Below, one piece after another: positions 1 through 16,082 of a stretch of DNA of 46,537 nt. Origin of the DNA: Pseudomonadota bacterium. GTDB taxonomy: Bacteria; Desulfobacterota; DSM-4660; Desulfatiglandales; B25-G16. Where the stretch lies: positions 1 through 46,537 of the forward strand of contig JAUVXZ010000003.1 of NCBI GenBank assembly GCA_030603345.1, given 5' to 3'. The position numbers were made by a program, and so were the translations under genes. Below the pieces are notes generated by a model. It worked only from the letters and a program-made list of their open reading frames with translations. It did no database searches and was not told where the DNA came from. Positions within the stretch are counted from its first letter, which is position 1. Each line of letters opens with the position of its first letter.

Positions 1-339
1 TGTAGAAGGACCTCCCCTTTGAATATTGACAATTACACAGGGGGTCTCGGTCATTACAGCAAAACCGATAGCCTCCTGCTTGAGGGAAAACCCCGGTCCG
101 CTTGTTGCTGTCATAACCTTTTTTCCAGTAAGAGAGGCCCCGACTATCGCGCACATGGAAGAGAGCTCATCTTCCATTTGGATAAACTTCCCTCGCTTTG
201 CCGGTAGCCGATACGAGAGCGATTCCGCAATTTCTGTAGAAGGAGTAATAGGGTAGCCTGCAAAAAAATCAAGACCTGCATACAGGGCTCCCTCTACACA
301 GGCTTCGTTACCTTGAACAAAGAGGATATTGTTTTTCAT
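1..339 (-). CDS. korA: 2-oxoacid:ferredoxin oxidoreductase alpha subunit, 5' part (runs off the window edge)
   Basis: Not in the ORF track; translated by hand from ATG at 339: MKNNILFVQGNEACVEGALYAGLDFFAGYPITPSTEIAE...QMEDELSS...TATSGPGFSLKQE...QRGGPST, with the YPITP and SGPG motifs. Confidence 0.93.
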   Translation of the reverse strand, partial: MKNNILFVQGNEACVEGALYAGLDFFAGYPITPSTEIAESLSYRLPAKRGKFIQMEDELSSMCAIVGASLTGKKVMTATSGPGFSLKQEAIGFAVMTETPCVIVNIQRGGPST

Positions 340-414
340 TTACCAAATGCCTTATTTGATTTAGCCACAAACACACGAAGTCACTGGGTTCAATTTTCAA
401 TTGTTTGTGACTTG

Positions 415-437
415 CCCCGCCCCGTTCCGGGTCGGGG
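415..437. repeat. GC-rich intergenic hairpin (REP-like or RNA stability element)
   Basis: CCCCG-C-CCCG-TTC-CGGG-T-CGGGG between korD and korA. Confidence 0.4.
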
Positions 438-443
438 GTGACC

Positions 444-653
444 CTATTGAAGTTCTATTGCAAGATCAGGGCAGCGAAGCTCGCACATTCCGCAGCCATT
501 ACATTTATCCGGATAGGCAAGGTTAGCCTTTTCCATTTCATCCAAAGCCAGGGCATCTTCAGGACAAAACTCCACACAGATGCCACATCCTTTACACCAT
601 TGCCTGTTGATAACAGGCATGCCTTTCTTTTTTTTGGCCATTATATTGGTCAT
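444..653 (-). CDS. korD: 2x[4Fe-4S] ferredoxin, 2-oxoacid oxidoreductase delta subunit
   Basis: CKGCGICVEFCP and CNGCGMCELRCP motifs, directly upstream of korA. Confidence 0.9.
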   Translation of the reverse strand: MTNIMAKKKKGMPVINRQWCKGCGICVEFCPEDALALDEMEKANLAYPDKCNGCGMCELRCPDLAIELQ

Positions 654-691
654 TTGTAATACTGATCTTTTATGTCAAGCGGTTTGGTGAG

Positions 692-776
692 ATATAGGGG
701 GAGGGTAGCCACTTGCGATATGGCTTTCGGTGGATTTTCTCTCGCGCGGCAAGCAGCGAAACACCTCCCCCTATGT
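692..776 (-). terminator. Branched stem-loop downstream of the ABC operon (terminator or stabiliser)
   Basis: 11-bp perfect stem (694-704 with 764-774) enclosing two small hairpins. Confidence 0.4.
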
Positions 777-832
777 TGTTGTTTCTCCAGGCCGGACTCT
801 GAGTATGGCCGGTGATCTTCAAGCTGATACGT

Positions 833-2008
833 CTACTTGAGGACGAATTCTCCACCCGCGACAACCAGGGTCATCACGCCGCCTTTCCCATCACCGACTT
901 CGTCCATGGTGGTGACGCCGGAGATCCCCGGATAGTTCGTCAGCTTTTCCCAACCCTTGCGGATCTTCTCCCGGTCCTTCTGCAGGTCTCCAGGCTTGTT
1001 GGTTACGCCCTCCTCTTCCATGATCTTCTTGATGATGTACATATTATCGTATGAACGTGGCCCACTATAGGGCGGCATCCTACCACCGGGGGAACGACTG
1101 GTGAACTCCTTGAGAAACTTCACCATTCTTGGGTCCGGGTTTCCTACGATCCATGCTGCTGTGGAACCATAATAGCCTTCCACAGCATCCCCCCCGATCT
1201 CGATAAGCCCAGGAGTGCTGTTACAGGCCCCTCCAATGGGCATGGCCTTGATTCCCTGGCGGCGGGCCTCGATCATGAGCTTTGCACCTTGTTCATAGCA
1301 GCTCCCAATGCCGATTCCATCCGGGTTGAGCGCCTTGATCTCAGTCATATAGGGTGAGAAGTCCAAGGTCTGGGTCTGGAAGGTATACATCTTTAGTAGC
1401 TTGATGCCGTATTTCTCGAAGAGGACTGGCAGGATCTTTTTTCCCTCCACCGTGGACACGGCATCTTCGGAATTGTAGAGAATCACCGCAGTTTTGATGT
1501 TGTATTTTTCCTTCCATTTCCTTACCGCAGGGTCGAGCTGCTTATCACTTGTCAGGGTATTCCTGAACCCCCAAGGACTCAGGGCGGACAGCCCCGGTTT
1601 GGACGAGCAGAAGGAGACAAGGACCAGCTTCAGCCTGTCGAGCTTTGGGAAGATGACCTCGCATATGGAACTCTGACAGGGCCCATTGACCACAAGAACC
1701 TTATCTTGACTCACGAGCTTGTTTGCAATTGGGATGGCAGGGCCGGCCTTACATGCTGCGTCGTACCAGGTGACCTCTATCGGAACCCCTCCGATTCCAC
1801 CTGCTGCATTGATCTCCTCAACGGCGATATCTCCGCCTATCTTCGCGGCCATGCCCCACTCGGCACAAACCCCGGAGATTGAATAAATGGCGCCGATCTT
1901 GACCTTTTTGCCGTATAGCTTTGCGGCCTGGGAAGGCGAGGCCAAAATCAGGCCGAGCACCAAAAAACATGCCACTAACATAATGGGTACAAAGTATCTC
2001 CTTTTCAT
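833..2008 (-). CDS. ABC transporter substrate-binding protein (LivJ/LivK-like)
   Basis: Signal peptide, KIGAI...AVEEINAAGGIGG, FRNTL motif, adjacent to LivHMGF homologues. Confidence 0.92.
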   Translation of the reverse strand: MKRRYFVPIMLVACFLVLGLILASPSQAAKLYGKKVKIGAIYSISGVCAEWGMAAKIGGDIAVEEINAAGGIGGVPIEVTWYDAACKAGPAIPIANKLVSQDKVLVVNGPCQSSICEVIFPKLDRLKLVLVSFCSSKPGLSALSPWGFRNTLTSDKQLDPAVRKWKEKYNIKTAVILYNSEDAVSTVEGKKILPVLFEKYGIKLLKMYTFQTQTLDFSPYMTEIKALNPDGIGIGSCYEQGAKLMIEARRQGIKAMPIGGACNSTPGLIEIGGDAVEGYYGSTAAWIVGNPDPRMVKFLKEFTSRSPGGRMPPYSGPRSYDNMYIIKKIMEEEGVTNKPGDLQKDREKIRKGWEKLTNYPGISGVTTMDEVGDGKGGVMTLVVAGGEFVLK

Positions 2009-2149
2009 TGTTGAATCCTCCTTTGTGGTTAAAGTGAAATCATTTAGCCTACAGACCTCTTGTTATTATCACCTCCTTTGCCTTATAGAATGAGTTGTGC
2101 GAACCATGATCTCTAAGATATCCCTTTGTCTCTGGTCAGGTCCAAAAGG

Positions 2150-2878: not shown

Positions 2879-2883
2879 CTTGG

Positions 2884-3642
2884 TTACCTCTTCCCCAGGT
2901 AGGCCTCGATTACCGCAGGGTTTTCCTGGATCTCAGCAGGAGTCCCTTCGGCGATCTTGCCCCCAAAGTTCAGAACCGAAATGACATCAGACATTCCCAT
3001 CACCAATTCCATATTATGCTCGACTAAAAAGACTGTTTTGCCCATCTGGTTGATCTTTAAGATAAGTAAATTGAGTTCCTCGGTCTCATGGGGATTCATG
3101 CCTGACGCAGGTTCGTCGAGAAGGAGCAAATCAGGCTCCAGGGCAAGGGCTCTGGCGATCTCAACCAGTCTTTGGTCTGCATGAGGGAGGTTGGAGGCGA
3201 TATCATCTGCCTGGTGGGGGAGACCAACGAACTCCAGCCACTTCAAAGCGTTTTCGCGGGTGACCTTCTCTTCCTCCGGCTCCCCAATCGAAAACCTGAA
3301 GAAGGTCTTCAAAAGGCCCGCCTTGGTCTTGCAGTGGCTCCCCAGCATCACGTTCTCCAAAACAGTCATGAAACCAAAGAGACGGACAATCTGAAAGGTT
3401 CTGCCAATTCCAAGCTTGGTTCGCAGATAGGGTTTTACGCCGTCAATACGGGTTCCCTTGAAGCGAATCTCTCCTCGAGTCACATGGTACATCCCGCTGA
3501 TCAGGTTGAACAGGGTGGTCTTCCCTGCTCCATTCGGACCGATGAGGGCATGTATTTTCTTCTCCTGCACATCCATTCCAACATTGGAGAGGGCGCAGAA
3601 TCCATTGAAGTGTTTCACTACGTCCCTGATCTCAAGGATCAT
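2884..3642 (-). CDS. livG: ABC ATP-binding protein, LivG-like
   Basis: GPNGAGKTT, LLLDEPASG, C-terminal VIEAYLG. Confidence 0.93.
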   Translation of the reverse strand: MILEIRDVVKHFNGFCALSNVGMDVQEKKIHALIGPNGAGKTTLFNLISGMYHVTRGEIRFKGTRIDGVKPYLRTKLGIGRTFQIVRLFGFMTVLENVMLGSHCKTKAGLLKTFFRFSIGEPEEEKVTRENALKWLEFVGLPHQADDIASNLPHADQRLVEIARALALEPDLLLLDEPASGMNPHETEELNLLILKINQMGKTVFLVEHNMELVMGMSDVISVLNFGGKIAEGTPAEIQENPAVIEAYLGKR

Positions 3643-3698
3643 CTTGCCTCCAGATCAAAACCATCTATCATCACTTGATTCACATGGCCTGAGGACTC

Positions 3699-4556
3699 TC
3701 AGGCCCACTCCTTGCCAAGGGCATTTCGGAAAAGTCTGTCTAATGCCCGTACTGTATCTAACCCTATGACGCCCTGGGGTCTGATGATCATCATGACGAT
3801 CAGAAGGGCTCCATACAACTCCATTCGCCACTCCTGGATAGCTCGAAGGAATTCCGGTATAAAGGTAAGGGCTAGCGCCCCGAATATTGGTCCCCAGAAT
3901 ATCTGAATCCCTCCAAAGATCGTGAATATGAGAAACTCAATGGCATGCATGATATCAAACATGAGAGGTTCGACATATTCCTGATAATGGGCGAAGATAC
4001 CCCCCCCAATGCCAGCCATAAAAGCCCCGACGGAGAAGGCGAGAAGCTTAGCAGAGACAATGTTCACCCCGATGATCTCGGCAGCGTCCTCGTCGCTTCC
4101 GACAGCCTGGAAGGCCCTTCCCATCCGAGACCTGCGTAACCGACTGAAAAAGATGATCAATATGAGCACCATCCCGTAAGCATAGAGCAAAGTGTATTTT
4201 TGATACGGGATACCTGGGAATCCTTCAGCCGCTCCGGTATATTTCAGGTTGATGGCGACCACCCTGACAATCTCACCGAACCCCAGGGTCAAAAGCAGCA
4301 AATAGATCCCTTTGATCCGAAGGGCCGGCAAACCCAGAATGAGGCCCACGATCCCGGCAAATATCCCCCCTAGTAAGACAGCGGGAACATAGGGGATCCC
4401 CCATTTCACTGTGCAAATCGCCGACACATACGCCCCAATGGCCATGAACCCGGCTTGACCCAGGGATATCTGGCCGGTCATGAAAGGCATATAGAAGCTC
4501 AGGGCCATAATGATGTAGATACCCGCAATAGTCGCTACTGAAATCAGGTAATCCAA
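3699..4556 (-). CDS. livM: ABC permease, LivM-like
   Basis: GQISLGQAGFMAIGAY, LRIKGIYL, hydrophobic. Confidence 0.92.
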   Translation of the reverse strand: MDYLISVATIAGIYIIMALSFYMPFMTGQISLGQAGFMAIGAYVSAICTVKWGIPYVPAVLLGGIFAGIVGLILGLPALRIKGIYLLLLTLGFGEIVRVVAINLKYTGAAEGFPGIPYQKYTLLYAYGMVLILIIFFSRLRRSRMGRAFQAVGSDEDAAEIIGVNIVSAKLLAFSVGAFMAGIGGGIFAHYQEYVEPLMFDIMHAIEFLIFTIFGGIQIFWGPIFGALALTFIPEFLRAIQEWRMELYGALLIVMMIIRPQGVIGLDTVRALDRLFRNALGKEWA

Positions 4557-4566
4557 GACATTCCCC

Positions 4567-5442
4567 CTAACCCTGGGTTACACGCGTTCCAAAAAGCCCA
4601 GTAGGTTTGAATATGAGGATAATAATCATAATCCCGAAGGAAAAGATATCCTGTAAATTGATCTCTGTAGGAAGAAGGACAATGCTGAACACCTCTGCCA
4701 TCCCCAGGATCAATCCCCCAATCATTGCTCCCACCACATTTCCCAGCCCGCCAATGAGCATCACCACAAGTCCTTTCAGCGCAAAGGTAAGCCCGATGAA
4801 AGGGGTAATGGCATGGAAGACAATGCCGATCATCACGCCGGCAGTGCCTGCCAAAGCCGAGGCAATCCCAAAGGTGAGCAGGACAATCCAATCCACATTT
4901 ACCCCGAGCAAGCCTGCGGTAGTGTGGCTTTCAGCAACGGTCCTCATGGCCTTACCGACCTTTGTCTTTGTGATAAAGAAATAGAGGACTACCATCAGGA
5001 ACAGGGAGACTCCCAGTATCAGGATATTTGTAGAGCTGATCAAAAGGGGGCCCACCTTGTAATTGACGGTCTCTATGGCCTCGGGAAAGCGCGTTCCGTA
5101 TCCTCCGAAGAGCTTGACAGCCAGGTTTTGGAGGATGATCGTGACCCCAATGGTACTCAAAAGCGGTGCCAGGTGAAAATCCTTCTTGAGGGGCCTGATA
5201 GCCAGGACATCGATGATAATTCCGAGCACACCGGTTGCCACCATGGCCAGGGGAAGGGCAATGTAAAGGGGTAGACCACTCCACATGATGATATAGAGCC
5301 CCATAAAGGCACCGGCCATCAGAACCTCTCCGTGGGCAAAATGTAGAAGCCCGAGCACCCCGAATATCAAGGTGTAGCCGATTGCCACAAGGGAATACGT
5401 GGCCCCCAGCATAAGGCCATTGATCAACTGTTGAAGGATCAT
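4567..5442 (-). CDS. livH: ABC permease, LivH-like
   Basis: QQLINGLMLGATYSLVAIGYTLIFG, HFAHGE, KPTGLFG. Confidence 0.92.
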   Translation of the reverse strand: MILQQLINGLMLGATYSLVAIGYTLIFGVLGLLHFAHGEVLMAGAFMGLYIIMWSGLPLYIALPLAMVATGVLGIIIDVLAIRPLKKDFHLAPLLSTIGVTIILQNLAVKLFGGYGTRFPEAIETVNYKVGPLLISSTNILILGVSLFLMVVLYFFITKTKVGKAMRTVAESHTTAGLLGVNVDWIVLLTFGIASALAGTAGVMIGIVFHAITPFIGLTFALKGLVVMLIGGLGNVVGAMIGGLILGMAEVFSIVLLPTEINLQDIFSFGIMIIILIFKPTGLFGTRVTQG

Positions 5443-5918
5443 TTTCCTCTCATTTTTGGTGCTGCGGCGATTACGGCATCGATTATCTGCTTATATCCCG
5501 TACAACGACACAATACCCCTGCAATGGCCAGCCTGACCTCTTCCTCGGTAGGATCTGGATTGTCTCTTAACAATTCATAAGCAACCATCAGCATGCCAGG
5601 GGTACAGAATCCGCACTGAAGGGCATGATGCTCCCGAAAAGCCTCCTGCAGGGGATGTAACTTCCCATCCCCTGCAAGACCCTCCACGGTCATGATTTCA
5701 GCTCCATCGGCCTGAACAGCGAACATCAGACATGAGCGGATCGATCTCCCGTTAAATAAGACCGTACAGGCACCACAGAACCCGTGTTCGCATCCAACAT
5801 GGGTTCCGATGAGTTCCAGATCGTCCCTTAAAAAATCCACAAGGAGCCTCTTTGGGTCTACCTCCCTCTCGTATTCCACCCCATTTACCTTCACCGTAAT
5901 GCGACGACGTCCTGCCAT
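5439..5918 (-). CDS. Molybdenum hydroxylase 2Fe-2S subunit (CoxS/HmfC-like)
   Basis: GCEHGFCGACTV, QCGFCTPG, CRCTGY; start placed at MAGRR after a GGAGG Shine-Dalgarno. Confidence 0.93.
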   Translation of the reverse strand: MAGRRRITVKVNGVEYEREVDPKRLLVDFLRDDLELIGTHVGCEHGFCGACTVLFNGRSIRSCLMFAVQADGAEIMTVEGLAGDGKLHPLQEAFREHHALQCGFCTPGMLMVAYELLRDNPDPTEEEVRLAIAGVLCRCTGYKQIIDAVIAAAPKMRGK

Positions 5919-5922
5919 ATGA

Positions 5923-6795
5923 TTAACCTCCCTTTGCCCTGTTCCGTGCCTCTGCGAGTCCTCTTTGGACAAAAACCCTTGTCATATCCCTCCGGTATTC
6001 GGCAGAGGCATGGTAATCCGATTCGGGATCCGCAGCCTCTGCGGCCTTTTGTCCTGCTTTCTCAATCAATGCATCGGTGATCACCTGACCAGCCAGGATC
6101 TCTTCTGCCTCTTCTGCCCGGATAGAGGTGGGACCAACTCCTCCCAAGCAGATGCGTGCCTCTTTGCAGACACCCCCTTTCCCCATAAAGAGGATGGATG
6201 CCACTGCCACAATGTAGAAGTCACCGCGACGGCGGGTCAATTCCACAAAGGACCAGCCTGTTTTCTGAGGAAGGACTGGAATTCTCACCTCCACCAAGAT
6301 CTCCGAAGGTTCCAAGGAGGTTGTCAAGTAGCTCAAGAAAAACTCTTCAGGCTCCAAGGTTCTCTCACCAGAAGGCCCGACGACCTTCATCTTTGCATCC
6401 AAACCATAGATGGCGACAGGGATCTCTGCAGCAGGGTCGGCGTGAACCAGGCTTCCCCCAATAGTCCCCCGGGTCCGAATGGATGCGTGCCCAATAAGAG
6501 AGATCGCTTCCGCCAATATGGGACACTTTTCTTGCACCAATGGGGACAACTCCACGTCTCTCTCTCGAGTCAGGGCACCGATAACGATTTCATCATCTTC
6601 TTGTCTAATGTAGTCGAGTTCCTTGATCCCATTAATATCGATCAGCACCTCCGGCTGGGCAACCCTGAAGTTCATCATGGGCACGAGGCTCTGACCGCCC
6701 GCAATGATCTTGGCTTCATCTTCGTACCGCTCCAACAGGCTAATTGCCTCTGCCACAGTGCTGGCGGTAAAATATTCAAAGGCACTTGGTTTCAT
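5923..6795 (-). CDS. Molybdenum hydroxylase FAD subunit (CoxM/HmfB-like)
   Basis: IAGGQSLVPMMNFR, RGTIGGSLVHADPAAE, ASAEYRR; no 4Fe-4S insertion. Confidence 0.93.
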   Translation of the reverse strand: MKPSAFEYFTASTVAEAISLLERYEDEAKIIAGGQSLVPMMNFRVAQPEVLIDINGIKELDYIRQEDDEIVIGALTRERDVELSPLVQEKCPILAEAISLIGHASIRTRGTIGGSLVHADPAAEIPVAIYGLDAKMKVVGPSGERTLEPEEFFLSYLTTSLEPSEILVEVRIPVLPQKTGWSFVELTRRRGDFYIVAVASILFMGKGGVCKEARICLGGVGPTSIRAEEAEEILAGQVITDALIEKAGQKAAEAADPESDYHASAEYRRDMTRVFVQRGLAEARNRAKGG

Positions 6796-6810
6796 ATCCT
6801 CTCTCCTATC

Positions 6811-7254
6811 TCACTGTTGGGATTTCAGCTCCTTTGCCATTTTCTTGAAGAACTGACCCGCCATCATCTTGGCTATCCCTCCGATCATCCTCTGGCCGAT
6901 CCCTGCTATCAGTCCTCCTACCTGCATGTCACCCTGATAGGATACAATGGTATGCTGGCCCTCCTGGGAAAACTCAATGGTGGCCTCTCCTTTTACAAAG
7001 CCAGGGTTTCCGCTCCCCTCGCCAAGCAGACGGTACCGGTTGGGGGGCTCAGGATCAACCACCTCTACCTTTCCCGTGTATGTCCCCTTGATGGCGGCAA
7101 TCCCTATCTTCAGCAAGACGTCATATTTTCCCGGCTCTCGTTCCTCCATTTTCTCACATCCCGGGATGGCCTTCTCAAGATTCTTTTGATCCATGAAGAG
7201 ATCCCATATCTGCTCTTGAGATGCCAGAAATTTATATTTTCCTTCAATCTTCAT
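6811..7254 (-). CDS. CoxG/SRPBCC family protein
   Basis: AIPGCE, VGGLIAGIGQRMI, position within the cox-like operon. Confidence 0.9.
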   Translation of the reverse strand: MKIEGKYKFLASQEQIWDLFMDQKNLEKAIPGCEKMEEREPGKYDVLLKIGIAAIKGTYTGKVEVVDPEPPNRYRLLGEGSGNPGFVKGEATIEFSQEGQHTIVSYQGDMQVGGLIAGIGQRMIGGIAKMMAGQFFKKMAKELKSQQ

Positions 7255-7277
7255 GATAATCTCCTTTGGCTGCTAAA

Positions 7278-9719
7278 TTATCTCTTCTTCTTTGCCTTCT
7301 GGATCAGGTGCCAGATCTTATTCGGGCTTAGAGGAAGCTCGCTTATGGTCACCCCTAAGGGAGCCAGGGCATCCGCAATGGCATTCCCAATGCAGGCTGG
7401 TACGGACATGCACGAGCTTTCCCCCGCTCCCTTTGAGCCAAGGGCCGTGATGGGCGAAGGGATTTCCACATGCCCGATATCGATCTTCGGGACCTCCATT
7501 GCCGTTGGAACCAGGTAATCCTGAAAGGATGCGGTTATGCACTGACCATTTTCGTCATAGGCCCACTCCTCGTAAAGGCTCCCCCCAAGACCGTGAGCAC
7601 AGCTTCCCATAACCTGGCCTTCGAGGAGCGCGGGGTTTAGGATGGTCCCCGCATCGTGCACGCTGGCCCATTTGAGAATCTTGACTTCCCCTGTTTCGGG
7701 ATCCACTTCCACCACGATCGCCTCCGCCATAAATCCATAGGTGTTGGAAGAATTCACACGGTCTAATTCATCCGGTGGCTGGGAGGTGGGCATGGTATAA
7801 AGGCAAGTCTCATAGAGACCGGCATCCATCCCTTCGGGTAGTGCAGCCTGATTCCAATGGGCGGTACCTGCTACGTGTCTCATTTGCATGGACTTGTCCG
7901 GAGAGCCCTTTACGCAGATCTTTCCCTCCTGTATCTCCAGCTCCTTCACGTTGGCCTCCAGCAGGTGGGCGGCGATCTTTAGCATCTTTTCCGTTAATCT
8001 GCGGGCAGCAGTAACGACTGCAGTAGTTACTACCGAGGAAAAGCGGCTGGAGTAACTGCCGGTTGTGATGCTATAGACCCGATCATGGGTGTCAACCACG
8101 TTGCTGACTGTTACATCGTCTGGATGGACCCCGAGCTCATCAGCCACTATCTGGGATATAACGGTATCGTGTCCCTGTCCCTGAGGGTTGGTACACGCTA
8201 TCACATGGACCTTGCCCAAGGGATCCATCTTGATAATGACGGCCTCACCTGACCCTGACTTGGGGTGGCCTTTGGCCCTCTCCTCCGGGGTCAAAGCCAG
8301 GGTGACGTATGCGATATTGGTGACCGAGGGATCTACAACAGTAGAAAAGCCGATGCCCATGAGCCTCCCTTGCTCTCTGGCCTTCCGCTGCTCTTCCCTC
8401 ATCTTTTTATAGTCGATCTTGTCAAGGGCCATCTGGAAGACCTTCTGGTAATCCCCTGCGTCATAGATCCCTCCCGTTGCCGTAGTATAAGGGAATTGGT
8501 CTGGCTGGATGAAGTTCTTGAATCGGATCTCAGCCGTGTCCATTCCCAGTTCAGAGGCGACCAAGTCAATCATCCGCTCCAGGCTGAAATAGAGTTCCTG
8601 ACAGGTATAACCGCGGTTAGGCGCTGTGAGGCACTTGTTGGTGCCGACGACCAAGACCTCCCTATCCAGGTTCCTGATTTGATAACCCCCTGTGTGGTTT
8701 CCTGTGCTCCGGTAAGCACAGCCCGGCTCTGGTGCACGGATATATCCACCGGTGTTGTCAATGGCCTTATCCTTCAGACCCAGGATCGTTCCATCCTTTT
8801 TGACCGCTGCCTCCATATAGGTGACGCGATCGGTGCCCGTTGCGCTGGCCAGGAGGTGTTCCCTCCGGTCCTCGATCCACTTAACGGTCATGCCCGTTTT
8901 TTTGGCAGCAAGGGCGATCAAGGCGATGGAAGGATACAGCCCTGTCTTCGTACCAAAGCCTCCCCCGATGTCCGTTGGGACAATCCAGCGCATCTTGTTC
9001 TCGGGAATCCCCAAGGCAATGGCTACCAGGGAATGATTTACAAAAGGCCCTTGATAGTTGTTGTAGATCACGAACTCCTCTGAGAAAGGATTGTAGGAAG
9101 CGATGACCCCATAAGTCTCGATGGGTGTGGATCCGTATTTAGGAAAGTGAAACTTGCCCTTCACCACCAAATCCGCCTCCTTATAAGCTTTGTCCATATC
9201 ACCGTACTGAAAGAACCGGTGACTGTAAATGTTGCTGCCGATATTGTCGTGAAGGACGGGGGCCTCAGGGCTCATGGCCTCTTCGATATCCATAACCACT
9301 GGCAAGGGTTCATAGTCTACCGTGATCAAGTCCAGGGCATCCTCCGCGACATACCGGTCATCTGCGACCACAACGGCTACCGGTTCGCCCACAAAGCGAA
9401 CCTTATCAATCGCACAGCAGTAATATTTTGGTGGCACCGGGACCCCGACCGGAAAGGGGTTGGACATCTTGGCTACGTCCTCACCGGTGAGGATTCCCCT
9501 CACTCCGGGAAAATTCAATGCCTCCGAGACATTTATACCCTTGATCCAGGCATGGGGATAGGGGCTTCGGAGTGTGGCTGCATGCTTCATATCTGGCAGC
9601 CGAATGTCATCCATAAAGGTTCCCCTACCCGTCAGAAGCCGCAGGTCTTCCTTTCTTTTTAAAGGCTTACCGACCCAGTTCCTTTTCTTGTGTTCAAATG
9701 TCTTTAGGTGTTCTGGCAT
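7278..9719 (-). CDS. Xanthine dehydrogenase-family molybdopterin large subunit (not CODH; possibly 2-furoyl-CoA dehydrogenase HmfA-like)
   Basis: RSPYPHA, GGGFGTK, WIEDRREH, PQGQGH, SKGAGES; active-site loop APNRGY. Start at MPEHL after GAAGGAG. Confidence 0.9.
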   Translation of the reverse strand: MPEHLKTFEHKKRNWVGKPLKRKEDLRLLTGRGTFMDDIRLPDMKHAATLRSPYPHAWIKGINVSEALNFPGVRGILTGEDVAKMSNPFPVGVPVPPKYYCCAIDKVRFVGEPVAVVVADDRYVAEDALDLITVDYEPLPVVMDIEEAMSPEAPVLHDNIGSNIYSHRFFQYGDMDKAYKEADLVVKGKFHFPKYGSTPIETYGVIASYNPFSEEFVIYNNYQGPFVNHSLVAIALGIPENKMRWIVPTDIGGGFGTKTGLYPSIALIALAAKKTGMTVKWIEDRREHLLASATGTDRVTYMEAAVKKDGTILGLKDKAIDNTGGYIRAPEPGCAYRSTGNHTGGYQIRNLDREVLVVGTNKCLTAPNRGYTCQELYFSLERMIDLVASELGMDTAEIRFKNFIQPDQFPYTTATGGIYDAGDYQKVFQMALDKIDYKKMREEQRKAREQGRLMGIGFSTVVDPSVTNIAYVTLALTPEERAKGHPKSGSGEAVIIKMDPLGKVHVIACTNPQGQGHDTVISQIVADELGVHPDDVTVSNVVDTHDRVYSITTGSYSSRFSSVVTTAVVTAARRLTEKMLKIAAHLLEANVKELEIQEGKICVKGSPDKSMQMRHVAGTAHWNQAALPEGMDAGLYETCLYTMPTSQPPDELDRVNSSNTYGFMAEAIVVEVDPETGEVKILKWASVHDAGTILNPALLEGQVMGSCAHGLGGSLYEEWAYDENGQCITASFQDYLVPTAMEVPKIDIGHVEIPSPITALGSKGAGESSCMSVPACIGNAIADALAPLGVTISELPLSPNKIWHLIQKAKKKR

Positions 9720-9859: not shown

Positions 9860-9865
9860 CAATTC

Positions 9866-10567
9866 TTAGGCTCCAAACCAATCCAGGGTATGAATGGAGT
9901 AGCCGATGGTGATTTTCCGGTTGAGGATTGGATCTAAAAGCTCACCTTCAAAGCGATCTGTAAACACGATTTTTTCGGTCAGCAGGGGGGGTGTGCCAGA
10001 AAAAATGGCGATCCCTTCAAGAGAACCCTTGACTCGCTGCTGGACCGAACGAATTAACTCCTCTGGAGGAAGAATCGTACCAAGGGTTGAGTCCTGGTAA
10101 AGAGTCCTTTTCCCTTCTTTTAAGACCCAGCTGCGGATTTCGATCTGATCCCAGTTGTCTTTGATCTCCTTGTAATTCCATAGATTTTTAGAAAGCACGG
10201 CAGGAGATACCTGTTTAGATTTTAGGATATTGATTCGCTCCAATTCCCGATCCGTATGATCGCTCCCCACAGTCACGTATATGCTGTTCCCATCCACGAG
10301 GAGGACGTACTCTATCTCTCCGGATGTCTCCTGACCCTCTACCTGGATATCCCCTTCCAAAACCATACCCTGAGGAGGTTTGGGATAGAAGGTGGGAACT
10401 GAAGGGGGTGGTTCGACTCCTTCCTTTTTCAGCTCCTCGATATGTCTCTGAACGGCCGAGTGATTGCGACCGGTATATCCACACAGGATGGCCCCTCTCA
10501 TATCGTACGTAATTTCCCTGTTTCCGGCCTTGTCTTCAACGATGAATCGAAACGTCACAGAAATCAA
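9866..10567 (-). CDS. DUF2848 family protein (FAH-like fold)
   Basis: GYTGRN...HIEEL...TSGEIE...GSDHTDRELE...SKQ pattern. Confidence 0.85.
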   Translation of the reverse strand: MISVTFRFIVEDKAGNREITYDMRGAILCGYTGRNHSAVQRHIEELKKEGVEPPPSVPTFYPKPPQGMVLEGDIQVEGQETSGEIEYVLLVDGNSIYVTVGSDHTDRELERINILKSKQVSPAVLSKNLWNYKEIKDNWDQIEIRSWVLKEGKRTLYQDSTLGTILPPEELIRSVQQRVKGSLEGIAIFSGTPPLLTEKIVFTDRFEGELLDPILNRKITIGYSIHTLDWFGA

Positions 10568-10612
10568 GCTCCTTTTCCCTGGAAATCCTTGAGCGTCCTT
10601 TTTCTTAGGATC

Positions 10613-12250
10613 CTACTTTTTCTCGAGCTTCTCCTTTTCCCATCTTCTCAGTTCCCTGCGCAGGATCTTTCCTGAGGATGTCTTGGGAAGCTCCTCGATG
10701 AACTCTATCTCCCTCGGGTACTTATACGGTGCGATGGTTGCCTTTACAAAATCCTGAAGGTTCTTGGCCAGGTCCGGTGTGGGCTCATAGTCCTCATGGA
10801 GCACCACCCAGGCTTTCACCTTTTCTCCCATCTCCGGGTCAATGATCCCTGCAACACCCGACTCCAGCACGGCTTCATGCTCCTGCAAGGCCGTTTCCAC
10901 ATCTGCCGGGGAGATACGATAGCCATGGCAGGTCATGATATCGTCTGACCTGGAACCGTACCAGAAATAACCGTCTTCATCCGTATATGCCAGGTCCTTG
11001 GTATCGTACCAATTGTTGGGAAAAGAGACCTCCTTCATCTGCTCTGGCATCTTGAAATACTCTTTGAAGAGGGCAGGGTGATCCCTCCGTATAGCTAAAT
11101 GGCCCATCTCCCCAGGCGGAAGTCGCTCGCCCTTATCGTTTATAATAGCTACCTCGATTCCAGGGAGTGGTTTTCCCATGGACCCGATCTTCACCTTTAG
11201 GTTTGTCTGGGTGGTACAGAATTCGTGGGCCTCTGTCTGCCCCATGCTATCGATGATCTTTACACCGAACCTGCGCATCCATTCCCGCCATGTCTCTGCC
11301 AAAAGGGGCTCCCCAGAACTGAGGCAGTATTTCAAGGAACTGGTATCGTATCGTTTCTCGGCATCCTTGACTGCCAGCATCATCCTGTATATGGTCGGGG
11401 TGCCTGCAAATATCGTAATCTTATACTTTTCGATGAACTCATAGGCTCTTTCTGAATTAAAGCGCTCATCTGAATAGATAACAGTAGATACGCCCCACCT
11501 GAAGGCAAAGAGGAAGTTATGCCCCAGTGCATACATCCAGGTCAGGGCAGTGGGTCCACCACAAATGTCCCCTCTTTCCAATCCCATCGTGAACTTTCCA
11601 ATTGGGTCTCCGGCTCCTATTATAAAGCGATGGGCGTGTACAACGCCTTTGGGCGCTCCGGTTGTACCGGAGGTATAGAGGTAGTATGCCGGGTCATCCT
11701 TGGAGGTCTCCACAAAGGGGAGAGAGGCCCCGTCTTCTTTCAAGAGATCGTCAAAGGAGATCTGATCCCCCTGGGTCTCACCGATGACTACGACGTGCTT
11801 TAGTGTCTTGTATTTGGCGCGGATGTTTTCGATGGCCTGGATATACCTGGAGGTAGTGATAACCGCTACGGCCTCGCTATTGTTGATAATGTGTTCCAGT
11901 TCCGATTCGCGGAGCATCGTATTCGTGGGGATGGGGACCGCCCCGACCTTCTGTCCTCCCAAGAAAGAGATCTGGTATTCAGGCTGGTTCGGGGTCCGGA
12001 TCACGTAACGCTGGCCCTTGGAGATCCCCAGCTTGTGAAAGCCATTGGCAAAGCGATCCGTAAGATTTTTCAGTTCTTGGTAGGTGATCTTCCGGTCTTC
12101 ATCATAGATCGCCACATCCTGGGCCCTCCCATGTTCAGCCCAGAAGTCAACCATGAGCCTTGCCATGTTCAATTTTTCCGGGATGTCCAACTTGTAAAAT
12201 CCCTGGCTATCCATTCTCAGATAGGTTTGATCTATGTCAATAGTTTTCAT
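10613..12250 (-). CDS. Acyl/aryl-CoA ligase (benzoate-CoA ligase-like AMP-binding enzyme)
   Basis: YTSGTTGAPKGVVH, GQTE, RSDD, YKYPR, PKTSSGKILR. Confidence 0.92.
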   Translation of the reverse strand: MKTIDIDQTYLRMDSQGFYKLDIPEKLNMARLMVDFWAEHGRAQDVAIYDEDRKITYQELKNLTDRFANGFHKLGISKGQRYVIRTPNQPEYQISFLGGQKVGAVPIPTNTMLRESELEHIINNSEAVAVITTSRYIQAIENIRAKYKTLKHVVVIGETQGDQISFDDLLKEDGASLPFVETSKDDPAYYLYTSGTTGAPKGVVHAHRFIIGAGDPIGKFTMGLERGDICGGPTALTWMYALGHNFLFAFRWGVSTVIYSDERFNSERAYEFIEKYKITIFAGTPTIYRMMLAVKDAEKRYDTSSLKYCLSSGEPLLAETWREWMRRFGVKIIDSMGQTEAHEFCTTQTNLKVKIGSMGKPLPGIEVAIINDKGERLPPGEMGHLAIRRDHPALFKEYFKMPEQMKEVSFPNNWYDTKDLAYTDEDGYFWYGSRSDDIMTCHGYRISPADVETALQEHEAVLESGVAGIIDPEMGEKVKAWVVLHEDYEPTPDLAKNLQDFVKATIAPYKYPREIEFIEELPKTSSGKILRRELRRWEKEKLEKK

Positions 12251-12475
12251 ATTATCACCCCTTTTTATTTTATCTTGCCTTTCCTCTTTTTTGGGGGAAA
12301 ATTTGGATATCTTGATATATTAAATACCAGATTATTAGTTGATTTTTTAGTTGAACCTTTGTGCGGTGTCAAGTAAAAAAATCAAAAATTCATCAAATTT
12401 GGGATAAGGCGAACCCTACCGTCAAGATAAAGAATTGCCCTCTCTCAGTCACAGCTTAAGGTCTTCAAGATTTAG
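12053..12475 (-). repeat. Copy 1 (intact context) of the promoter + CoA-ligase 5' cassette
   Basis: Aligns by eye with 22131-22368 and 25533-25960. Confidence 0.92.
12313..12372 (-). promoter_or_regulatory. Sigma70-type promoter plus shared 13-bp motif
   Basis: TTGACA (12367-12372), 17 bp, TAAAAA; TGATATATTAAAT at 12313-12325. Confidence 0.6.
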
Positions 12476-12805: not shown

Positions 12806-13039
12806 TCATACCTTTGTGGGGCGCTTCTTTTCTTGAACGGGTAGGTAGAGGATCTTCCGGTCGATCCTGGAGAGTCCCATAAATGCTGTACCCTTTGGCA
12901 GTTGCTCCCCTTTTCTCTCCTCTGGTTCGAAATAGAGGTCGCAATAGGGGCAGTGAAGGGGTATGTCGAGGCCGAGAAGGTTGGCATCGCAATGGAAGCT
13001 TTTGTTGCACTGGGGACAATTCACATAGTGGATTTTCAT
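12806..13039 (-). CDS. Small CxxC...CxxC zinc-ribbon protein downstream of UbiD
   Basis: MKIHYVNCPQCNKSFHCD...HCPYCD; starts 10 nt after the UbiD stop. Confidence 0.7.
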   Translation of the reverse strand: MKIHYVNCPQCNKSFHCDANLLGLDIPLHCPYCDLYFEPEERKGEQLPKGTAFMGLSRIDRKILYLPVQEKKRPTKV

Positions 13040-13049
13040 TCTTTTGTCT

Positions 13050-14441
13050 CTAAGAACTAATATAGTCTTCAAGGCGGATTTTTTCTAAGGCCTCTGGAGG
13101 AAGCGCTGCCCGCGGTGAATAGGGTCGATCTAAGGGTCTCGTTGCGTCGATAATCAAGCCGGAACCCTTTGTCTCTTGGCGAAGAGAAGGATCCAGGAGT
13201 TGCCCCTGAATGTTATGCAATACTGTAATATCTGAATCGGCCTGGCAGCAGTTTGACACTGCCCACATGACATCTTTGGCATTTTCTGGATCAAGGTCAT
13301 CATCTACCACAAAGACATGTTTGATGAAATTGCTGGCACTAAGGGCTGCCATGGCTGCCCGCATGGGCTCCCCCTCAGTTCTTTTCTTCATACTGATCAC
13401 GAGGTGAAAGGAACCGCCAGAGTGCAGCCAGCAGATATCTTTCACGCCGGTTATCACCTGTTTGACCCTTTGAAAGATGCTTGCTTCAATGGGAAAATGC
13501 GCATACAGGTGATCCAGGTGTGCTCCGAACACAGAGTGCATGATCGGACGGTGTCGGTGGGTGATGGCCCTTGCGCGAAAAAGCCAGGAGAGCCTTTGAG
13601 GGCCTATTAGCTTTGTAAATTCCCCAAAAGGACCTTCAAGGGTTCTCCTTTGTGGCAGGATTTCTCCTTCGATGACGATCTCTGCATCGGCTGGAACGAG
13701 AAGCCTCTCGCCGTATGCCTCCGAGGGGACTACCCTGAGGGGCTCACCCAAAAGACCGCCTGCCACTTCGTATTCATCCTCATCCGGAGGTACCAGGGCA
13801 GATGCGGAAAGCATGAAGGCCATGTGATGTCCCAGAACTACCCCAATGGGCATGGACTCTTGCCTGGCTTCCACCTCCTGAAAATACGTCCAGAGGTGTC
13901 TGGGAGACATATAGATAGCCAAGTGATGAGAGTCGATATACATCATGCGGTTCCAAGAGGTGTTGTAGCGCTCCCCGTTGGGTTCCCTGGCTACTACCAC
14001 TGGTGTAAGATACGGCCCTCCATCCATAGAATTATGCCTCATTATCGGCAGATCACCGATGTCTAGCGACTTCTCCCTGATGATAACCTCCTTCACAGGG
14101 GCCTCTGAAGGAGCGACAATCTCTGTCTTTTTTCTCTGCCTTGAACTCTCCAGGTATTTCTCGAAGAGGGAGACCCGATTTGAGTCTTGAAGATCTAATG
14201 ATACCGCCAGTTTCTCTCTCGTTGTGAACGCATGACACAACAAACGATAGTCCGATGGTTCTGCCTTCACGCTAGTTGGCTTGTCAAAGAAGACTGCAGA
14301 GAGGTTTCCCCGCTCCTCCAGTTGGTGAAGGATAGAGGAGACCTCAAAGGAGGCGGGCTTCACCGCCTTGGATACCCTCAAGGGTTCGCCAGGAATCCTA
14401 TCCTCCAGGTCTCTCAGCCAGGTGCGCAGATCCTTTGGCAT
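13050..14441 (-). CDS. UbiD-family prFMN-dependent (de)carboxylase
   Basis: DGGPY, N...R, RH, VPADAEIVIEG, EGPFGE, VVDDD, QAD...LDPS, IIDAT. Confidence 0.92.
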   Translation of the reverse strand: MPKDLRTWLRDLEDRIPGEPLRVSKAVKPASFEVSSILHQLEERGNLSAVFFDKPTSVKAEPSDYRLLCHAFTTREKLAVSLDLQDSNRVSLFEKYLESSRQRKKTEIVAPSEAPVKEVIIREKSLDIGDLPIMRHNSMDGGPYLTPVVVAREPNGERYNTSWNRMMYIDSHHLAIYMSPRHLWTYFQEVEARQESMPIGVVLGHHMAFMLSASALVPPDEDEYEVAGGLLGEPLRVVPSEAYGERLLVPADAEIVIEGEILPQRRTLEGPFGEFTKLIGPQRLSWLFRARAITHRHRPIMHSVFGAHLDHLYAHFPIEASIFQRVKQVITGVKDICWLHSGGSFHLVISMKKRTEGEPMRAAMAALSASNFIKHVFVVDDDLDPENAKDVMWAVSNCCQADSDITVLHNIQGQLLDPSLRQETKGSGLIIDATRPLDRPYSPRAALPPEALEKIRLEDYISS

Positions 14442-14468
14442 ATTCTATTTCCTTAAGGTGGATTTTTG

Positions 14469-16082
14469 CTATCGCATTTTGGACCAGAGGGCTCTTAGGT
14501 CTTGTGGATTCCACCAGATATCTATCTTTAGGTCCTCACAGATGACCTTGGCTGCATTGTAACCCGGAGCGCCCGTGATGTTTCCAAAAGGGTGGCTCCC
14601 TGATCCGCAGAGATATAGTCCCTGTATAGGCGTGCGATAAGGCTTGAGCCCGGGAAAAGGGCGATTCTCAAGCATCTGATCCCGGCTGGCCATTCCAATG
14701 CAATGGTCTCCTTCGCGCATGTTGATGAGCTTCCGCTCCACATCCAGGGGGGTAAATATATATGTGGCGATGATATTGTCTTTGTCTAGATTGGGTGCAT
14801 ACTCTCGCCATCTTTCCAGACAAACTTCCATGTATTCGGCGCCGATCTTGTCCCATGCCTCGGGTCCGCCATCTTTCAGGTGATAGGGAGCGAACTGCCA
14901 GAGGAAGGCCGTGTGTTTTCCTTGAGGTGCCTGTGCAGGGTCGTATAGGGTTGGTGCTGCGCATTGCATGCCTGGTTTTTTAGGAGGAATCCCTTCATCA
15001 ATCTCTCTCATGTGGGCATAAAAGTCATCCAGGCACTCCAGTCCCACATTGAAATTGAAACCAGAATCGATTTCCGGGTTAAAGGCAGCGGAGGTGTAAT
15101 GAAGAGGCTCGTTGAGTGCAAGATGAACACCAAAGAGTGGGAATTTGCCGAACTTGAAACCCTTTACCTTTTCAATGAAGCTGGATTCGAGCTTGTCTTC
15201 TCCCACCAACTCCAAGAAGGTCTGGGGGATATCGACCGAACTGACAACCAGCTTCCTGGCCTGAAGCTTTCTGCCATCATCCAGCACCACCCCAACAGCG
15301 CGTCCCCCCTCGACCATGATCTCCCGAACATGGGCTGCCTCCCGGACTCTTCCTTGGTTGGACTCAATGACCTTGGAGATGGCATGGGCCAGATAATGCG
15401 ACCCACCCCTGCACATACTTCCTCTGAGTCCTCCGGTGATGGAAGAGGCCACGTTGTAACCTAGCCCTGGCTCATCTGCAAGGAACACCCTTGTGGTGAC
15501 CAGAAAGATAAGCATTGCCCTCATCTGCTCGGTCTCGAAAAACTCCTTTGCCAACTCCATAGGGGATTGCTGGCTGAGGGCCAGATATTCACGGCCTGAT
15601 TCAGTCTTTTCCAGCAAGGCGCGTTTTTCCTCAAAGGGAAGGGGTGGTGAATAGGTTTCTGGTACGATAATCTCTTCGTTCATTCTCTGAAAGCGTTTTA
15701 AAAGATCGCGATAGGTGTCTGCATCCTTTTTTGAAAAGTAAGAGATATTCTTGAGCGTTTTTTCCTCTTCGGTGTGAAAGATAAGGCATTTGCCGTCGCT
15801 GAAGGGGGTCACGGCCTGTACGGGCGGCATAATCATGCGGGCACCATAACGGTCCAGCTCCAAATCCTTGTACCACGGAAGATCCGGTACCCATCTAAGA
15901 AAGTAGGAATGCAGGTTGTGATAAAAACCAGGGATAGTAACCTCCTCGGTGCAAAGCCCTCCCCCGGGCTCCATCCTTCGCTCCAAAACCAGAGTCTCTA
16001 AACCCGCCTTTGTCAGGTATGCAGCTAGAATCTGACCGTTATGACCCCCTCCAATGATGATAGCGTCAAAGATCTCTTTCAT
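14469..16082 (-). CDS. Phytoene dehydrogenase-like FAD-dependent oxidoreductase (PYROXD2-like)
   Basis: IIIGGGHNG, LERR...GGG, YRTPIQGLYLCGSGSHP...GAPGYNAA. Confidence 0.88.
   Translation of the reverse strand: MKEIFDAIIIGGGHNGQILAAYLTKAGLETLVLERRMEPGGGLCTEEVTIPGFYHNLHSYFLRWVPDLPWYKDLELDRYGARMIMPPVQAVTPFSDGKCLIFHTEEEKTLKNISYFSKKDADTYRDLLKRFQRMNEEIIVPETYSPPLPFEEKRALLEKTESGREYLALSQQSPMELAKEFFETEQMRAMLIFLVTTRVFLADEPGLGYNVASSITGGLRGSMCRGGSHYLAHAISKVIESNQGRVREAAHVREIMVEGGRAVGVVLDDGRKLQARKLVVSSVDIPQTFLELVGEDKLESSFIEKVKGFKFGKFPLFGVHLALNEPLHYTSAAFNPEIDSGFNFNVGLECLDDFYAHMREIDEGIPPKKPGMQCAAPTLYDPAQAPQGKHTAFLWQFAPYHLKDGGPEAWDKIGAEYMEVCLERWREYAPNLDKDNIIATYIFTPLDVERKLINMREGDHCIGMASRDQMLENRPFPGLKPYRTPIQGLYLCGSGSHPFGNITGAPGYNAAKVICEDLKIDIWWNPQDLRALWSKMR

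Follow-up and report, generated by a model that had tools for sequence, protein, structure and literature searches.

A possible anaerobic counterpart of the Hmf furoate pathway, with a FAH-fold DUF2848 protein at the place of HmfE

Lignocellulose hydrolysates contain furfural and furoate as major inhibitors, and a few isolates degrade them anaerobically. Anaerobic furoate degradation has been observed in cultures since 1983, but we know of no genes for it. Clusters of the hmfABCDE type have been recognized by HmfA, HmfD, and HmfE homologues lying near one another (Wierckx et al. 2011), and a 2011 review, in its account of anaerobic furan degradation, names only two Desulfovibrio strains as furfural degraders, gives no pathway as known, and expects alternative routes in anaerobes (PMC3223595). 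Our own literature search, with most subscription journals outside its coverage, found no title or abstract describing an anaerobic hmf-like cluster. Here we describe an operon in a 46,537-nt stretch of DNA (the window), which is one whole contig (C37) of a Desulfobacterota genome (3.33 Mb in 330 contigs, 88.6% complete, 4.65% contamination). It encodes a molybdenum (Mo) dehydrogenase of the HmfABC clade, a coenzyme A (CoA) ligase, and a DUF2848 protein. Judged from its genes, the operon is most likely an anaerobic form of the lower Hmf pathway, with a non-orthologous ligase and a protein of the fumarylacetoacetate hydrolase (FAH) fold at the place of HmfE.

All genes named in an earlier note, made from the letters of this DNA alone, were recovered by Pfam and NCBIfam scans of the window's open reading frames (ORFs), and all lie on the minus strand. 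The operon begins with an AMP-forming acyl-CoA ligase (10613..12250; 545 residues; Pfam AMP-binding, E = 2e-81), followed by DUF2848 (9866..10567; 233 residues; Pfam PF11010, E = 1.3e-59), the XDH-family Mo large subunit (7278..9719; 813 residues; Pfam Ald_Xan_dh_C, MoCoBD_1, and MoCoBD_2), a CoxG/SRPBCC accessory protein (6811..7254; Pfam COXG, E = 2.8e-25), a medium subunit binding flavin adenine dinucleotide (FAD) (5923..6795; 290 residues; Pfam FAD_binding_5 and CO_deh_flav_C), and a 2x[2Fe-2S] small subunit, here FeS (5439..5972; Pfam Fer2_2 and Fer2). The open frame of the Mo subunit reaches 9794, and its likely true start is at 9719, a position shared with a 98%-identical database protein (P0001). 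By Pfam the three-subunit set and its CoxG/SRPBCC module are complete, as in HmfABC. Next comes a Liv/HAAT-type ATP-binding cassette (ABC) importer with two permeases (4567-5442 and 3699-4556; both Pfam BPD_transp_2), two ATPases (2884-3642 and 2150-2878; both Pfam ABC_tran), and a periplasmic binding protein (833-2008; Pfam Peripla_BP_6). A gap of 180 bp separates the last of these from a korD-like 2x[4Fe-4S] ferredoxin subunit (444-653; 69 residues; Pfam Fer4), and the contig ends within the N-terminus of korA (1-339; 113 residues; Pfam POR_N).

Relatives of the Mo subunit are found on plasmids. Searching the proteins of 72,556 plasmids returned matches at 53% identity in Geobacillus kaustophilus pHTA426 and Priestia megaterium, at 45-46% in haloarchaea, and at 42-44% in Cupriavidus, Paraburkholderia, Caballeronia, Dinoroseobacter, and others, the large subunits of Dinoroseobacter shibae and Cupriavidus pinatubonensis being 44% identical. 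The distribution is bimodal, with a nearest group at 42-53% and the remaining matches listed at 37% or below. Those of the nearest matches that were inspected (H1, H2, H3, H8, H13) share their cluster with an acyl-CoA ligase, with an enoyl-CoA hydratase or thioesterase, or with both. The gene order on pHTA426 is UbiD ... XdhC, nucleotidyltransferase, Mo subunit, CoxG, FAD subunit, FeS subunit, AMP ligase, and enoyl-CoA hydratase; on D. shibae pDSHI01 it is UbiX, LysR, UbiD ... Mo, FAD, FeS, ligase, enoyl-CoA hydratase, and a Liv-type ABC system; and in C. pinatubonensis LysR, Mo, FAD, FeS, ligase, enoyl-CoA hydratase, MFS, and XdhC. The Mo-CoxG-FAD-FeS block of the window is collinear with the hmf-type cluster of pHTA426 (identities of 53, 42, 48, and 58%, respectively), in keeping with the hmf-like arrangement that had been proposed, and the Liv-type importer that had been pointed out is of the same type as that following hmfE in D. 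shibae. CoxG is a separate gene in the window as in Geobacillus, whereas the proteobacterial hmf clusters have it fused: a CoxG-homologous domain forms the C-terminus of HmfA in D. shibae (983 residues) and C. pinatubonensis. Published accounts describe D. shibae DFL12 as a confirmed degrader of furfural, with an HmfA homologue 54% identical to C. basilensis HmfA, place G. kaustophilus HTA426 among putative degraders, and report that C. pinatubonensis JMP134 contains hmfABCDE and grows on furoate (PMC3223595, PMC8091172).

Phylogeny places the window's Mo subunit in the same branch as these enzymes. In a maximum likelihood tree of 30 rows (quick search, LG+C20; three partial sequences were dropped beforehand) a 15-row clade with SH-aLRT support of 100 and a stem branch of 0.42 contains the window protein and its orthologues, the HmfA-type subunits of D. 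shibae pDSHI01, C. pinatubonensis, and G. kaustophilus pHTA426, and a Halorussus protein. The clade excludes a large subunit that PGAP names CO dehydrogenase, an Arthrobacter plasmid enzyme, the Mo enzymes found at other DUF2848 loci, and all four XDH-family paralogues of the same genome. The plasmid-borne clusters, together with PDB bit scores, served as stand-ins for named reference enzymes. Automatic JGI annotation calls Mo homologues at 59-86% identity '2-furoyl-CoA dehydrogenase large subunit', a name of use as a lead only.

Two insertions mark the same clade. Segments that the earlier note had picked out as HmfA-like correspond to true insertions, PS(V/G/A)xN(I/M)xY...ER..PK(S/N)G and DxxN(S/T)S, and these are restricted to the HmfA-type clade: both occur in all seven clade members that reach both positions and in none of nine aligned non-clade sequences. 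The Priestia sequence in this alignment is cut before the catalytic Glu, a residue that the window subunit keeps within GSKGAGES. Where CO dehydrogenase has its YRCSFR loop, the window subunit reads NR--GY; a string search for the 'AYR' loop of CO dehydrogenase found none, and the loop shows only in the alignment. CoxG reportedly serves quinone delivery in mycobacterial CO dehydrogenase, and by analogy the window's CoxG may deliver quinone to the Mo enzyme.

The operon core is a conserved unit of uncultured anaerobes, and its arrangement is not a matter of chance. We collected 153 loci, 80 from species-representative genomes with a DUF2848 profile and 73 from metagenome contigs with the window protein as query, and took as operon-type the 26 whose DUF2848 is at least 55% identical to that of the window, counting for each gene those loci with enough flank. 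The ligase is directly upstream of DUF2848 in 18 of 18 informative loci and the Mo subunit directly downstream in 14 of 14. The FAD subunit is kept in 10 of 10, and downstream of the FeS subunit the ABC importer is represented by its permease in 8 of 8 and its binding protein in 6 of 6. The ligase itself is 76-98% identical across the related loci. In a FastTree phylogeny of 148 DUF2848 proteins, which leaves out five operon-type rows with matches shorter than 180 residues, the 22 operon-type rows (the window's included) form one clade with local support of 100. Record titles of these loci name Desulfarculaceae, 'Deltaproteobacteria', and Riflebacteria, and the operon is widespread in metagenomes, the 26 loci being those found here.

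DUF2848 is, on the evidence of its predicted structure and of profile comparison, a divergent FAH-fold enzyme with a complete catalytic residue set. A literature search of the coverage given above found no title or abstract assigning a function to the family, and a sequence search of the PDB gave no real match; its relatives number 1,072 among 1.84 billion representative sequences (E up to 0.001). The AlphaFold2 model of the window protein (pLDDT 97.2) has as its top Foldseek matches only FAH-superfamily proteins, with probability 1.0 and TM of ~0.65, among them Cg1458, FAHD1, fumarylpyruvate hydrolase, KdaD, YisK, and HpcE. Pfam PF01557 matches 10 of 118 DUF2848 members weakly (best E = 3.6e-6), and hhalign aligns the family with an FAH profile built from eight FAH proteins of four other genomes with 93% probability (E = 2.7e-7); no FAH-family protein was found in the window's own genome at its 88.6% completeness. 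In the 118-member alignment E84, E86, K118, Q158, and Y223 are invariant, and H42, E45, D103, R34, and G191-T192 are conserved in at least 90% of members. Of these, H42/E45, E84/E86, D103, K118, Q158, and G191-T192 fall on conserved FAH columns, and we take them, as in FAHD1, to include a metal triad, a His/Glu water pair, and an enolate Lys. In FAHD1 and FAH this catalytic set supports metal-bound 2-oxo-acid or enolate chemistry with activated water. DUF2848 shares with the FAH superfamily the fold, His-x-x-Glu, Glu-x-Glu plus Asp, Lys, Gln, and GT(P), but is only 11-19% identical to it and forms a separate Pfam family. Its contexts also differ, being heterocycle hydroxylases, C-N hydrolases, and kor genes rather than the aromatic ring-fission or sugar-acid pathways of the superfamily.

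Set against the 2-furoate (hmfABCDE) cluster of Cupriavidus basilensis HMF14 and the related ones of D. shibae, C. pinatubonensis, and G. kaustophilus pHTA426, the window operon likewise has a three-subunit Mo dehydrogenase of the same clade with both insertions, an AMP-forming CoA ligase next to it, a Liv-type importer of the kind seen in D. shibae, UbiD in the vicinity, and a predicted end product of 2-oxoglutarate. The order differs, the ligase coming first and then DUF2848 where hmf clusters run A-B-C-D-E, and so do the parts: an FAH-fold DUF2848 stands where the hmf clusters have the crotonase-type thioesterase HmfE, the ligase is non-orthologous to HmfD, and no XdhC or MocA maturation genes lie alongside. 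In this anaerobic host the operon is followed by a ferredoxin-dependent 2-oxoacid oxidoreductase; moreover, the UbiD is no HmfF, and the genome, which is incomplete, yielded no UbiX. The absence of a crotonase-type HmfE, remarked on in the earlier note, is confirmed by Pfam, which finds no ECH-family gene in the window, and the crotonases of the genome are 24-35% identical and on other contigs. The further suggestion that DUF2848 replaces HmfE is borne out as far as a hydrolase-type fold goes, and the substitution itself is a proposal drawn from gene position.

The pathway we propose would run as follows. The Liv-type ABC system would import the acid, and the ligase, to go by its family and its fixed place in the gene order, would form the CoA thioester. 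The Mo dehydrogenase with CoxG would then hydroxylate C5 with water, as its relatives do in the characterized Hmf pathway, and the 5-hydroxy product would tautomerize to an enol-lactone. DUF2848, for which a part in the tautomerization is the other proposed role, would open the ring to give the 2-oxoglutarate skeleton, possibly also freeing CoA, with a metal-held 2-enolate as leaving group by analogy with acylpyruvate hydrolysis. Finally, a four-subunit 2-oxoacid:ferredoxin oxidoreductase would convert 2-oxoglutarate to succinyl-CoA.

The ligase is a plausible aryl-acid ligase from the aryl/medium-chain group. It scores 363 bits on the NCBIfam benzoate-CoA ligase family model (cut-off 375), and its nearest solved structures are 9g79 (deposited as an acetyl-CoA synthetase), anthranilate-CoA ligase, and benzoate-CoA ligase. 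The binding protein of the operon and that of a second ABC unit in the window are 36% identical to each other, and their PDB relatives offered only generic Leu/Ile/Val-type matches as to ligand.

The promoter region of the ligase gene, its 5′ leader, and its first ~50-70 codons are present in the window in three copies with 83-92% identity (repeat families D1-D4), at 12042-12472 (minus strand), 25524-25960, and 22127-22373, as found by a repeat search, tblastn matches to ligase N-terminal fragments, and alignment. The copy at 25524-25960 ends in the ribosome-binding site and ATG of a second CrtI-like gene, and that at 22127-22373 continues into the gene of a polyprenyl synthase. All three copies keep a TTGACA box and a TATTTAAT further downstream; it therefore appears that one promoter serves three transcription units. 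A general scan of promoters and terminators against shuffled sequences was uninformative (23 versus 15.1 +/- 3.3 and 21 versus 16.5 +/- 4.3). Behind the copy at 25524-25960, at 23390-25517 on the minus strand, stand a second CrtI/CrtO-like flavoprotein, 47% identical to one beside UbiD, and then a CoxG-like SRPBCC protein.

Upstream of the ligase operon, across ~560 non-coding bases, lies a UbiD unit on the same strand. Such a unit had been noticed before, but it is longer than was described and runs upstream to 20598. It is headed by a second Liv-type ABC importer (16098..20598; by Pfam), followed by a CrtI/CrtO-like FAD oxidoreductase directly upstream of UbiD (14469..16082; 537 residues; Pfam Amino_oxidase and NAD_binding_8), the UbiD-family (de)carboxylase (13050..14441; 463 residues; Pfam UbiD, UbiD_C, and UbiD_N), and, beginning 10 nt past UbiD, a zinc-ribbon ORF with CxxC...CxxC (12806..13039; 77 residues). 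Position 16082, where the earlier note had closed its interval, thus belongs to the flavoprotein and not to UbiD. The flavoprotein scores 244 bits on the CrtO model (cut-off 1000), its nearest solved structure is the phytoene desaturase 4dgk (E = 9e-12), and the protein atlas names it 'phytoene desaturase family'. The zinc-ribbon ORF has a weak match to the YnfU zinc-binding family and no solved relative. It recalls what we take to be the small D subunit of VdcCD-type decarboxylases, but PDB and NCBIfam sequence searches gave no support for a VdcD-type subunit.

The UbiD protein had been likened to the HmfF branch, and this placement does not hold. Its nearest solved structure is indeed PtHmfF (6h6v/6h6x, 241 bits over the full length; the next is 7ae4 at 156 bits), 6H6V being PtHmfF (PMC8988006), but it is only 35% identical to the UbiD of G. 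kaustophilus, 32% to that of D. shibae, and 33% to a paralogue on contig C170 of the same genome. The HmfF clade in a 19-row tree (support 99) consists of the UbiDs of D. shibae, G. kaustophilus, and two Bacillus DUF2848 clusters and excludes the window protein, which groups loosely (92, not starred) with the C170 paralogue and the UbiDs of operon-type loci L105 and L111. The 'QAD...LDPS' tail that had been read as a mark of HmfF is generic and occurs in many unrelated UbiDs, including the same-genome paralogue. The window UbiD also differs from HmfF in having the small zinc-ribbon ORF after it and the CrtI-like flavoprotein before it, so that the likeness lies in family membership and the closest solved structure. 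No match to PF02441 (UbiX, or HmfG) was found in the genome, which is 88.6% complete. Among operon-type loci the UbiD and flavoprotein pair stands beside the operon only in L095 and L112, the closest relatives with enough upstream flank, and in both the zinc-ribbon ORF is kept after the UbiD orthologue (82-84% identity). The ABC, CrtI-like, UbiD, and zinc-ribbon genes may be a loosely attached upper module that trims a substituted or dicarboxylated precursor.

At the other end of the operon, the best NCBIfam model for the window korA is the generic 2-oxoacid:acceptor oxidoreductase alpha subunit PRK08659. Full-length korA homologues near related clusters score 524-559 bits on this model (cut-off 411) and 371-389 bits, under the cut-off of 579, on the model for the 2-oxoglutarate synthase alpha subunit, and we infer the 2-oxoglutarate specificity implied by the kor label from an assignment at family level. 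The delta subunit and the alpha N-terminus are all that the window contig contains, and all four subunits are present in L100, where they (beta and gamma included) are accompanied by an aldehyde:ferredoxin oxidoreductase and an Ldh_2 dehydrogenase. The kor genes lie downstream of the operon in L094, upstream on the same strand in L100, and upstream on the opposite strand in L003. The window contig and L094 (12159-12327; on a contig 96-98% identical) both end inside the same korA gene, and tblastn with the korA N-terminus finds six further loci elsewhere in the genome, with 59-61% identity at the two best. The contig end is probably an assembly break at a repeated gene.

DUF2848 also occurs in quite different neighborhoods. 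Clustering of the neighbors at the 80 genome loci finds a C-N hydrolase at 31, a GntR-FCD regulator at 30, a small cupin at 23, TRAP transporters and an HpaB-type monooxygenase at 11 each, and a flavin reductase at 5. By tblastn, 75 of 127 non-operon loci have a C-N hydrolase near DUF2848; among the 64 non-operon genome loci of at least 10 kb, one lies within ~10 kb of DUF2848 in 36, and a hydroxylase does so in 25 (HpaB in 15, XDH-type in 10). A sister group of DUF2848 proteins (40-51% identity) is represented by 16 long metagenome loci, of which 13 have a C-N hydrolase, 10 an XDH-type enzyme, and 9 korA, usually in the order korDABC ... cupin, DUF2848, C-N hydrolase, FAD, FeS, Mo, and a PreA-like reductase. 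This cluster type, which also includes GntR and whose PreA-like reductase combines DHO_dh and Fer4, is seen in L114, L130, L133, L137, L139, L150, and other metagenome loci and in L005, L008, L020, and L025; it is probably an uncharacterized N-heterocycle route ending in a 2-oxo acid. In Bacillaceae and Paenibacillaceae (L034, L041, L049, L064, L076, L078) DUF2848 is found with GntR, an HpaB-type monooxygenase, a C-N hydrolase, a cupin, and a flavin reductase, and the UbiDs of L049 and L076 group with that of the G. kaustophilus hmf cluster. These Bacilli clusters are candidate genes for aerobic pyrrole-2-carboxylate degradation; they match what we take to be the two-component pyrrole-2-carboxylate monooxygenase route, which our literature search did not confirm.

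Like the window operon, the sister and Bacilli clusters place DUF2848 beside a ring hydroxylase, often beside a 2-oxoacid:ferredoxin oxidoreductase. Unlike it, they lack a CoA ligase, which at a threshold of 50% identity appears in 0 of 127 loci, and the hydroxylase is of another XDH lineage or a flavin monooxygenase. Because an amidase is present in them, their substrate probably holds nitrogen. Since DUF2848 recurs after ring hydroxylases of either chemistry, and near kor in anaerobes, it is likely to act in the processing of hydroxylated rings; the simplest common role would be conversion of a hydroxylated, tautomerized ring to 2-oxoglutarate or 2-oxoglutaramate.

Two loci combine these elements in other ways. 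L068, from a Bacillota genome (1-20160), has a Liv ABC system, a PaaK-like ligase, UbiD, an ADP-forming acyl-CoA synthetase, GntR, DUF2848, a C-N hydrolase, an amidohydrolase, an HmfA-like Mo subunit (57% identical), CoxG, FAD and FeS subunits, a binding protein, and a second UbiD. The Mo subunit of L084, on a Halorussus vallis plasmid, belongs to the HmfA clade (46%); with it go two AMP ligases, a PaaI thioesterase, DUF6282, BenE, and an SRPBCC protein. Judged by gene content, this is a further lineage where a different hydrolase takes the place of the crotonase HmfE.

With slightly less than even confidence we read the window operon as an oxygen-independent, CoA-dependent route for an acid with a five-membered heteroaromatic ring carboxylated at C2, namely 2-furoate or thiophene-2-carboxylate. 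Of the two we favor furoate, thiophene-2-carboxylate being the non-nitrogen alternative, and the caution first voiced with the hmf-like proposal, that the acid could be a thiophene, pyrrole, or pyridine one, stands. The anaerobic setting agrees with an aldehyde:ferredoxin oxidoreductase in the window and with the further korA-like loci of the genome. Several points weigh against this reading. The case for it is built from sequence and predicted structure. The Mo tree came from a quick search and proceeds without the named C. basilensis HmfA, HcrA, QorL, NdhL, KdhL, and PicA, and the plasmid loci L082 and L085 are equated with published hmf clusters from organism and gene order. The ligase is not an HmfD orthologue, with 25-29% identity to the HmfD-position ligases of L081, L082, and L085, and the UbiD, on a branch of 1.22 outside the HmfF clade, gives no support for furandicarboxylate as a precursor. 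The operon has no thioesterase or crotonase, and the substrates of the FAH-fold enzymes known to us are free 2-oxo acids rather than thioesters. Adjacency of the kor genes is seen in only 3 of the 26 related loci, so that the conservation supposed for it fails within the operon type, although it recurs beside the sister DUF2848 group at 9 of 16 long loci. At L095 (94% identity) ~730 non-coding bases follow the binding protein and then comes a CoA-transferase-like gene, a call read from its N-terminus alone without a family search; at three other loci a carboxyl-transferase of the glutaconyl- or methylmalonyl-CoA decarboxylase type precedes the ligase. The kor, CoA-transferase, and carboxyl-transferase neighbors are each compatible with a C5 dicarboxylate product, and none is fixed. 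Lastly, beside the ligase of operon-type loci L110 and L165 stand a C-N hydrolase and a cupin, four more such loci have the cupin, and L068 joins its 57%-identical Mo subunit and DUF2848 to a C-N hydrolase and an amidohydrolase; the gene content of L110, L165, and L068 points to a nitrogen ring in those lineages. Taken as a whole, the earlier interpretation is partly supported, with the Mo clade and DUF2848 fold borne out, the UbiD and ligase links not supported, and the kor link half upheld.

The same machinery could act on a nitrogen ring, likeliest pyrrole-2-carboxylate, which would be converted to its CoA ester, hydroxylated at C5, and opened by DUF2848 to a 2-oxoglutaramate-type product from which an amidase encoded elsewhere would release ammonia and 2-oxoglutarate. 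The C-N hydrolase as the commonest DUF2848 neighbor, the Bacilli HpaB clusters (some with UbiD), the genes beside the ligase in L110 and L165, and the union in L068 of an HmfA-like Mo enzyme, DUF2848, and two CoA-activating enzymes with a C-N hydrolase and an amidohydrolase all argue in this direction. We nonetheless consider it unlikely for the window, since neither the window cluster nor those of relatives with at least 75% DUF2848 identity (L094-L100, L112, L164) contain a C-N hydrolase or cupin, the genome at 88.6% completeness has only generic matches to the relatives' C-N hydrolase (26-31% identity, with no orthologue) and none to their cupin, and the characterized relatives of the Mo subunit act on furoyl-CoA. 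Somewhat less likely again is that the Mo enzyme acts on another acid, such as a free six-membered N-heteroaromatic or aromatic one (picolinate or nicotinate, for instance), with the ligase working on a different intermediate and the Hmf likeness confined to clade level. XDH-family enzymes do switch substrate within clades, DUF2848 occurs with at least three separate XDH lineages, the solved relatives of the ligase include anthranilate- and benzoate-CoA ligases, and the binding proteins give no ligand clue; but the ligase, DUF2848, and Mo genes are always contiguous, as ligase and dehydrogenase are in hmf clusters, the Mo subunit has its clade-specific insertions in common with furoyl-CoA dehydrogenases, and Pfam finds no ring reductase or enamidase-type gene in the operon. 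It is very improbable that the Mo enzyme is a form-II CoxL-like or 4-hydroxybenzoyl-CoA-reductase-like enzyme with no heterocycle role, its proximity to kor and UbiD being coincidental. CO dehydrogenase large subunits do head its NCBIfam and PDB matches (562 bits, cut-off 950, and 540 bits for 8uem), and four more XDH-family clusters exist in the genome, two having UbiD on their own contig. All NCBIfam scores are, however, far under their cut-offs, the PGAP-named CO dehydrogenase and all four paralogues lie outside the Mo clade, NR--GY replaces the YRCSFR loop, and 4-hydroxybenzoyl-CoA reductase reaches only 275 bits; the FAD subunit scores 97 bits on the 4-hydroxybenzoyl-CoA reductase beta model (cut-off 404.55).

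A wider reading, which as a whole we regard as rather doubtful, would make DUF2848 the ring-opening enzyme for 5-hydroxylated five-membered heteroaromatic 2-carboxylates in both aerobic (HpaB) and anaerobic (Mo) routes. As an FAH-fold hydrolase of enol-lactones or enamine-lactams it would let furoate, pyrrole-2-carboxylate, and perhaps thiophene-2-carboxylate converge on 2-oxoglutarate, and the window operon would be the first gene-level model of strictly anaerobic furoate degradation. The triplicated promoter would tie in the supply of acceptor or cofactor, with the promoter-sharing CrtI-like/CoxG-like pair and the polyprenyl synthase providing the operon's electron acceptor or a cofactor. 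The operon is a concrete candidate for anaerobic furan breakdown, and the analysis supplies the DUF2848 family with a fold, a set of catalytic residues, and a pathway context. An oxygen-free furoate module, if it proves true, would be of interest for the anaerobic detoxification of hydrolysates.

The further XDH-family clusters of the genome are on contigs C34, C170, C206, and C147; on C34 and C170 a UbiD gene is found no more than ~10 kb away, and two UbiD genes stand in tandem on C296. This gene content suggests an organism specialized in anaerobic aromatic-acid chemistry. A search for dsrA found no match in the genome at its 88.6% completeness. Elsewhere in the window, 27264-30443 contains genes for a small cupin, the large and swivel subunits of an aconitase-X (AcnX), and an NAD-dependent epimerase/dehydratase. 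Some AcnX proteins are hydroxyproline dehydratases, and if those of the window are too, they would by analogy link to pyrroline or pyrrole carboxylates. The genes at 30561-36494 encode an iron alcohol dehydrogenase, a bis-MGD molybdopterin oxidoreductase, a small Fe-S protein, and the aldehyde:ferredoxin oxidoreductase, and at 36977-39100 on the minus strand there is a 707-residue class I Glu/Gln-tRNA synthetase with a C-terminal tRNA_bind (EMAP-like) domain.

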